From: an uncultured Rhodobacteraceae bacterium
GTDB lineage: Bacteria > Pseudomonadota > Alphaproteobacteria > Rhodobacterales > Rhodobacteraceae
Assembly: GCA_965659715.1 (NCBI GenBank)
Contig: CBFHXE010000006.1
Span: 287 to 64,286, forward strand
Direction of reading: 5' to 3'
Length of the DNA stretch: 64,000 nucleotides
Each line of letters opens with the position of its first letter. The first letter of the stretch is position 1. Below the pieces are notes generated by a model. It did no database searches. It had not been told where the DNA came from and saw nothing but the letters and a program-made list of their open reading frames with translations. Of this stretch, positions 6,610 to 7,277 are shown piece by piece. Both the position numbers and the translations under genes were made by a program.

Positions 6610-6645
6610 ACTCTACATATTGGTGAGACAAACTAGATATTGTCA
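6610..6645. promoter_or_regulatory. Tandem NrdR-box-like motifs upstream of the small membrane protein pair
   Basis: ACTCTACATATTGGTG and AAACTAGATATTGTCA; cores CTACATATTG (6613-6622) and CTAGATATTG (6633-6642) are 20 bp apart. Confidence 0.35.
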
Positions 6646-6782
6646 TTAATTTGTCGCAGTTGCCCAATTATTTTGCACTTTTTGCCAGAATTGTGATGAC
6701 TCGGCGGAATTTCGCCTATAGAAGGACGGTGAGACAAGATGTCTCGATAATAAAGAACTAAACAGAACAATCGGAGGGAACT

Positions 6783-7001
6783 ATGATTGATAAGATTAAA
6801 GCCGCAGTGGCTGCGCTAACGGATGTTGGCCTTGCACTTCTAGCCTTTGCAATTGTCGCGTCTTTGCTTGTTGGTGGAAACAACATGGCATTCTTGGGCG
6901 ATGTTGTTGGCAACATTACTGCACTTGTACAACAACTGGGGAACGCTGGCCTAGCCGGTTTGATTTCTCTGGGTGTGGTCCTGTGGCTGTTTAACAGGTA
7001 A
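6783..7001 (+). CDS. Small hydrophobic helical-hairpin membrane protein, unknown function (paralog A)
   Basis: Strong SD GGAGGG before the ATG; 72 aa with two hydrophobic segments; aligns without gaps to the next ORF. Confidence 0.85.
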   Translation: MIDKIKAAVAALTDVGLALLAFAIVASLLVGGNNMAFLGDVVGNITALVQQLGNAGLAGLISLGVVLWLFNR

Positions 7002-7034
7002 AAGCACTTCTCCCCCAAGAAAATGGAATAAAAT

Positions 7035-7277
7035 ATGTCCTCTCTCACAAGCGCTCTATCCAAGGCAACTGAAATGCTGTGGAAGGTGACCGAGATCGGA
7101 TTTGTGGCCAATTTGGTCATTATTTTAGTCTACATTCTCTTGGGGGAAACCAGTGGCAATTTTGTAATTTCAGTTGTTGCCAACATCATTCTTTTGGTTG
7201 ATGCCCTTACATATCAAGGTGTTGTAACCATTGTTCTGGCGGCATTTCTTTATCGCTATTTTACACAAAAGCTATAG
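7035..7277 (+). CDS. Small hydrophobic helical-hairpin membrane protein, unknown function (paralog B)
   Basis: 80 aa, starts 33 bp after paralog A; same hydropathy pattern and shared T[DE]xG, LxG, F, VVxNI, LV..L, G residues. Confidence 0.75.
   Translation: MSSLTSALSKATEMLWKVTEIGFVANLVIILVYILLGETSGNFVISVVANIILLVDALTYQGVVTIVLAAFLYRYFTQKL

Follow-up and report, generated by a model that had tools for sequence, protein, structure and literature searches.

A conserved tandem pair of small paralogous membrane protein genes with a covarying RNA helix at its junction, predicted NrdR boxes upstream and single copies in large phages

The window, that is, the whole 64,000-nt stretch of DNA from an uncultured Rhodobacteraceae bacterium analysed here, carries two small genes, A and B, in tandem on the forward strand, which are flanked by a glycosyltransferase family 4 gene and by proS, a class II aminoacyl-tRNA synthetase gene named by sequence, both on the minus strand. 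The initial annotation gave the coordinates, lengths and translations of the two ORFs correctly, and rightly saw no assembly machinery nearby, since the flanks consist of the glycosyltransferase and the proS-type synthetase genes. Each of A and B is present as a single copy in its own genome. The genes and their translation signals are as follows.

6783 to 7001, + strand: ORF A, encoding a conserved 72-aa two-TM hairpin protein, major-type subunit
7035 to 7277, + strand: ORF B, encoding an 80-aa diverged paralogue of A, minor-type subunit
6773 to 6779, + strand: strong SD of ORF A, GGAGGGA
7022 to 7040, + strand: RBS region and start codon of B, predicted to be mostly paired via a stem extension in this genome

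The strong SD of A and the weaker one of B had been pointed out before, and the difference extends beyond the window: five or six positions of AGGAGG are matched in 58/79 A genes versus 24/79 B genes among the best 80 of 98 GTDB loci, all of them alphaproteobacterial. The structured leader that had also been ascribed to A was not recovered, as its SD is about half unpaired.

The proposal that A and B are gap-free paralogues stood up well. They share 15 identities over 59 residues (16 over 72), and the alignment score was reached by 0/2000 shuffles. Pairwise BLASTP alone gives a weak match (E 0.002), while hhalign between the two family profiles gives 97.2% (E 3.6e-11) and, with a wider A profile, 98.7% (E 2.3e-16), so that the profile similarity, on which the proposed paralogy depended, is significant. 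The layout described earlier (amphipathic helix, TM segment, amphipathic helix, TM segment, basic tail) was also seen by hydropathy and hydrophobic moment. In A, an amphipathic helix (residues 1-14) is followed by a first TM segment (15-30), a loop with a second amphipathic helix (39-53), a Gly-rich turn LGxxGLxG, a second TM segment (56-70) and the basic tail. The charge bias across the family places the N and C termini inside and an acidic loop in the periplasm, the inter-TM loop holding 0.7 (A) and 0.2 (B) K+R versus 1.8 (A) and 2.1 (B) D+E, with the basic residues at the termini and the TM segments nearly uncharged. Conserved positions in the A family are Gly, Leu, Phe37, Asn44 and Asp/Glu14, and the family alignment contains no cysteine in A and no invariant residue of catalytic type. 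The top coevolving pairs (21-70, 24-66 and 22-69) fit an antiparallel TM1/TM2 hairpin, the signal being weak (Meff 156), and there is a weak indication that its two halves are related to each other as an inverted repeat (hhalign 35%, score 17.1 versus at most 14.7 in 30 column shuffles). Monomer models of A and B are all-helical with a pTM of about 0.5; with these models, neither Foldseek against PDB and viral structures nor VIA-align (best Z 5.9 and 6.9) gave anything above background, and a complex prediction with four copies of A scored 0.05 and was non-discriminating.

In line with the candidate undescribed system proposed earlier, searches of Pfam, NCBIfam, PHROG, PADLOC and PDB gave nothing significant for the family, and the Atlas matches are unnamed clusters only, one of them 51% viral. 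It is large nevertheless: a profile search returned 383 family clusters at 50% identity and, at E <= 0.001, 3655 clusters (90% identity) among 7996 scored candidates. A literature search of full texts found no description of the family; small proteins without a word to search for are hard to find, and a mention in a table is possible. The hosts are mostly uncultured, the closest named relatives are marine Rhodobacteraceae, and named isolates such as Cognatishimia coralii D5M38 and Frigidibacter sp. RF13 are among the carriers. With the genome of the window included, carriers make up 10/401 genomes of the same family and 2/401 of the phylum, and plasmid records contained no family match.

B comes directly behind A at 79 of the 80 best GTDB loci (out of 98), and the locus of the lone exception stops 96 nt past A; of 44 metagenome loci, 34 hold an A+B pair and 10 a single gene (two of these truncated). 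Flanking genes vary by lineage, and no conserved neighbour of A+B was found in the same 80 of 98 loci, where the commonest one, an MmcB-like gene upstream, occurs in 23/80. Mean identity in this set is 72% for A versus 40% for B. Compared with three close loci, dN/dS ranges from 0.06 to 0.16 for A and from 0.07 to 0.24 for B; judged by their sequences, A and B are real genes under purifying selection. A quick tree of 77 rows, built from few columns and with the careful search unfinished, sets 30 B rows apart as a clade of their own (SH-aLRT 98 for the separating branch); phage and single copies are A-type.

Transcription, which the initial annotation needed for its proposal, was seen in RNA libraries, of which we examined 7 of the 15 listed runs, belonging to 6 studies, together with a further run whose kind is unrecorded. 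In 7/7 RNA runs, A is covered by metatranscriptome contigs; these runs had been picked for holding this stretch, and contigs show presence, only hint at level and cannot show ends. In four runs the contigs begin between 6731 and 6742, near the predicted start, with none upstream of 6731. In two studies they stop at 7144 and 7135, and in three other runs they continue through B. One contig spanning A and B (6737-7276), which differs from the window at 12 sites, has a depth of 917 versus 5 for a proS piece in the same run, contig depth being a poor measure. The upstream glycosyltransferase gene is uncovered in the RNA runs, from which nothing is concluded. The A transcript is apparently abundant.

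The junction between the two genes contains a predicted long-range RNA helix with the following arms.

7009 to 7022 (core 7011 to 7020), + strand: 5' arm of the helix, in the intergenic spacer
7136 to 7149 (core 7138 to 7147), + strand: 3' arm of the helix, within the B codons for Leu-Leu-Gly-Glu

A C-rich tract is present in the spacer of 34/74 loci by a strict rule versus 5.1 expected, and in the window the spacer is predicted to pair with 7138-7147 (z -3.0). For the 74-locus set, 3 duplicates and 1 locus without the motif were dropped; a subset of 63 loci, with near-duplicates left out and the window added, was aligned by plain MAFFT, and RNAalifold returned from it, unaided, exactly one 14-bp helix, which is the same one. 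Of 882 helix cells, 89.9% are paired, compared with 44-61% in slid registers, and compensatory changes on both sides occur in 10/14 helix pairs, with 137 double changes in total. The paired percentage and the covariation score were each reached by 0/500 shuffles, and the count of pairs by 24/500. Moreover, the duplex of a spacer with its own B beats that with the B of other loci in 73/74 loci, and that with synonymous recodings in 72/74. The helix core lies a median of 21 nt before the B start, and the SD of B is predicted to be less open than that of A in 61/73 loci. Rfam has no match for the helix.

Two other roles of this region were considered and set aside. Pairing of the C-rich spacer with the SD of A itself was rejected, own pairing being better in only 38/74 loci. 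Strict translational coupling by a terminating ribosome is unsupported, because the helix survives a ribosome footprint over the A stop in most loci.

The long-range helix lacks generality, as own pairing is better in only 16 of 32 more distant loci (15 at p <= 0.05), and many hosts carry A alone; both points count against the scaffold reading given below. A soil clade instead possesses a strong local intercistronic hairpin after A, with z < -2 in 19/26 paired loci versus 2/11 single-copy loci used for comparison. Two structural solutions at one junction suggest selection on the A:B ratio, and both the long-range helix and the soil-clade hairpin likely give far more A than B. An abundant A with a low-copy B had been proposed in the initial annotation, and that part, the design, is favoured by the higher identity of A than of B, by a helix that brackets the B initiation region, by the soil hairpin and by phages with A only; the specific analogies drawn from it are unsupported, as described below. 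In all, A and B very probably form a conserved two-gene unit with an RNA structure at its junction that may set their ratio.

Ratio-setting operons such as E. coli malEFG and Rhodobacter pufBALMX likewise carry a conserved structure after their first gene. Unlike in those operons, one arm of the helix here falls between the genes and its partner some 130 nt further on within B, so that the B initiation region is enclosed; the two genes are paralogues, and the helix is one without an Rfam match. According to PMC5927463, protective structures lie at a mean of 107 +/- 56 nt inside the downstream ORF; the helix found here ends about 101-115 nt into B, a position that fits a role in mRNA decay. In four loci (L061, L066, L073 and L076), the B start lies 7 nt after the A stop and the 5' arm falls within a Pro-rich N-terminal extension of the B frame, which implies a later start for B or an arm that is now coding.

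Upstream of A, a putative promoter and candidate NrdR boxes were identified.

6613 to 6622, no strand assigned: predicted NrdR box 1 core, with all six conserved positions (C4 A6 A8 T9 T11 G13)
6633 to 6642, no strand assigned: further box of NrdR type, a strict match; its 20-bp distance from box 1 is not the one usual for a pair
6644 to 6653, no strand assigned: predicted NrdR box 2 core, a relaxed match; its 21-nt spacer from box 1 is that of the published short class
6696 to 6722, + strand: predicted promoter, with a -35-like element at 6696-6701 and a -10-like element at 6717-6722
6702 to 6716, + strand: GCGG..GC imperfect dyad in the promoter, conserved in most Rhodobacterales loci

A motif TGAC..GCG..GC is found 76-107 nt upstream in 43/79 loci, and the 1.5 Mb of locus sequence contain it at no other place. 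In the window, only 15 nt separate the -35-like and -10-like hexamers, and the dyad could be a second operator or part of a promoter for a non-standard sigma factor.

The NrdR box was defined by C4 A6 A8 T9 T11 G13, following PMC13584703 and bioRxiv 10.1101/2024.05.27.596032, and the published pair rule places boxes at 14-17 or 24-27 bp. A strict box is present in 48/75 promoters (4.1 expected) versus 47/724 (6.5%) own-genome intergenic controls, a strict plus relaxed pair in 14/75 promoters versus 3/724 controls, and a pair by the published rule in 19/75 loci versus 2.0 expected, with 56/75 lacking such a pair; these counts overstate the enrichment because the loci are related. The window has two strict boxes, and the pair is formed by those at 6613 and 6644, the second of which is relaxed. 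The boxes overlap the -35 element or closely precede it, and they recur at about 10-bp steps from it. The own genome contains an nrdR gene (TIGR00244 over cut-off) and, by the same test, 28 such pairs, 9 of them intergenic, the class II RNR promoter being among them. The box motif and the 31-bp pair geometry resemble those of NrdR regulons as given in PMC13584703, whereas the target here is a membrane protein pair rather than an RNR, the sites are predicted, and most of the promoters have one strict box instead of the canonical pair. According to PMC5343134, NrdR regulons average 3.2 genes. Of three other intergenic NrdR-type pairs in genome G000 (C19:32278, C108:564 and C12:10577), which are possible further regulon members, one precedes an HNH-nuclease-like gene and one an smc-like gene (both by sequence appearance), while the remaining pair is not close to any gene.

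As for other regulators, GANTC sites occur upstream of A in 53/74 loci without being positioned, and a link to GcrA was therefore dropped; CtrA, LexA and FnrL motifs upstream of A showed no clear excess. Perfect DnaA boxes, by the generally known motif, are present in 9/74 promoters (L011, L015, L016, L028, L041, L043, L046, L058 and L059) versus 1.6% of controls, at scattered positions in about five lineages, and none is in the window.

Relatives of A are also carried by phages. In IMG/VR, 164 stretches encode relatives (query P0305), of which 80 were kept, in 22 groups; viral scans with queries A1 and P0230 gave no relatives, and annotated phage records contained no family match. The phage copy is single, with A alone, in 80/80 kept stretches. 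In 21 phage loci A comes directly after gp23 and is followed by a conserved gene, uvsY and uvsW, with a terminator and a late-type motif in the gp23-A interval, while other copies are located near clpP on contigs of up to 364 kb. In 3/22 groups A is next to nucleotide genes, the neighbours of this type being genes for a phosphoribosyltransferase, dUTPase, class II RNR, PRPP synthetase, a PnrA-like binding protein and Amt. One phage island (L155-L171) carries class II RNR, phosphoribosyltransferase, A, an ammonium transporter, and PRPP synthetase or the PnrA-like binding protein. In the 70 nt preceding A, 46/57 unique phage cases have a TAAATA-type motif versus 3.6 expected, the relaxed motif having been picked after inspecting the sequences; it resembles T4 late promoters, and the exact T4 late consensus was found in 0/80 phage loci. 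NrdR boxes are not enriched in phage upstream regions (6/58).

Our reading of these features, which is tentative and could well turn out otherwise, is that A and B might build an abundant inner-membrane scaffold made up mostly of A with little B, which NrdR would couple to replication and phages would deploy late. NrdR would switch A+B on when DNA precursors run low. The helix would lower B output by hiding the B initiation region and might, in addition, shield a cleaved A-only message from 3' exonucleases. With its N-in/C-in hairpin, an amphipathic helix for each membrane face and a Gly-rich second TM segment, A could self-associate into rings or patches, which B would nucleate or cap, and such assemblies might stiffen or seal the membrane during cell replication and growth. 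Phages would express A late, so that the host membrane is kept intact while virions mature. The patchy distribution is unexplained by a general growth function.

The wider picture goes further and is, as a whole, rather doubtful: uncultured bacteria of water and soil would share a widespread, so far undescribed membrane assembly of two subunits; as a non-enzyme member of the NrdR regulon, this assembly would be a mass-produced structure or pore tied to the dNTP pool, with its A:B ratio fixed by a helix in B codons, and would serve as a late gene of T4-like and jumbo phages. Taken singly, the control elements are new instances of familiar types; the family and its control logic together fit no known system. 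A large family with no database name, apparently strongly transcribed in seawater, occurs in mostly uncultured hosts and large phages, and the locus offers handles on it, since the covariation-supported RNA element predicts the subunit ratio and NrdR predicts when the genes are on. If true, the state of the nucleotide pool would be connected with membrane physiology through an assembly that a dNTP sensor controls and that phages reuse late, a link of which no example was found in the literature searched.

The main rival to the scaffold is a nucleoside pore, in which A would be an oligomeric inner-membrane facilitator for nucleosides, nucleobases or similar compounds, with B as its regulator, induced through NrdR at low dNTPs and borrowed by phages for genome replication. 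NrdR control, seen as box enrichment in host promoters, points to nucleotide handling more naturally than to a scaffold, and the nucleotide genes adjoining A in those three phage groups, the suggested inverted repeat within A, which would be typical of transport proteins, and conserved polar residues at 13, 14, 27 and 44 agree with it. We nevertheless regard it as unlikely, as the TM segments have almost no charge, 19/22 phage groups are without nucleotide neighbours, host neighbours are not nucleotide genes, and the phage promoters look late and are unenriched in NrdR boxes. An extreme transcript excess is, besides, more typical of structural proteins. A role in phage-host conflict would make A a superinfection exclusion protein or a holin/antiholin-like factor of lysis timing in phages and, in hosts, a barrier to DNA injection that is derepressed through NrdR when infection drains dNTPs. 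Class II holins such as pinholin S21, and T4 Imm, are phage-encoded proteins of 65-95 aa with two TMs and the termini inside, which A resembles in size and topology, and the position of phage copies behind gp23, a terminator and a late-type motif, as well as the patchy host distribution, would suit such a role. It is improbable, however, considering that A and B form a strongly conserved chromosomal operon in housekeeping neighbourhoods rather than defence islands, have no PHROG, Pfam or PADLOC match, and apparently yield a very abundant host transcript, which is hard to square with a holin, and that no endolysin is among the named recurrent phage neighbours.

Quite improbable, too, is an extracellular protein-lipid filament with A as its major and B as its minor subunit, which would be distantly related to the VirB2, CedA1 or TedC pilins, domesticated, and used to scavenge DNA or nucleotides. 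Apart from the major/minor design, the likeness to VirB2/TrbC, CedA1/CedA2 and TedC pilins lies in about 70-80 aa with two hydrophobic helices and an amphipathic helix, and CedA1/CedA2 are tandem small two-TM proteins as A/B are, CedA1 being unprocessed and having a tandem paralogue according to PMC9905601. Weak Pfam matches to TrbC/VirB2 (4/44 B, best E 0.018) and to TrbL/VirB6 (6/129 A, best E 5e-4) occur among members, and TedC matches the B model with Z 6.0 (rmsd 5.1 over 78 aligned residues, within background, the model having a pTM of about 0.5). Against a set of 29 TrbC/VirB2 pilins, though, hhalign gave 0.7% for A and 17% for B, no better than reversed controls (up to 21%), and the inter-helix loop, acidic in A/B, is basic in those pilins, about 60% of which carry RR there. 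VirB4 was not found in 8/13 carrier genomes, three of those single-contig, nor TrbC in the genome of the window, and neither a VirB4/CedB ATPase nor a VirB6/CedA pore gene is a recurrent neighbour in the best 80 of 98 loci. The pilin analogy of the initial annotation thus fails these tests, and its analogy with inovirus-like coats likewise fails those applied to it: although the second half of A resembles an inovirus major coat protein in its amphipathic helix, TM segment and basic tail, PF05356 (Phage_Coat_B) matches A at E 0.16 and 12.4 bits, below the 23.5-bit cut-off (1/37 members at E 0.088), Zot was not found in 5/5 carrier genomes, the two TM segments of A are equally conserved, which would not suit a cleaved leader, and the viral carriers of A are large tailed-phage contigs.

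MscL (PF01741) shares with A/B a cytoplasmic amphipathic N-helix, two TMs, a periplasmic loop and basic residues after TM2. It differs in length, A/B being half as long, and hhalign gives only 0.7-1.3%, with no Pfam match. MscL is present in 14/15 non-carriers and also in 7/13 carriers, so that a strict replacement of MscL by A/B was rejected.

A few loci depart from the usual gene content. L005:1471-2223 (G036) has two A-type genes 255 nt apart, an independent duplication of A and not an A+B pair. At L054:6265-6511, a frameshift splits B in the assembly while A is intact. The single A-type gene at L091:1504-1710 (G103) looks degenerate or C-terminally truncated; it is followed by a terminator-like hairpin and lies between ubiA-like and dapD-like genes.
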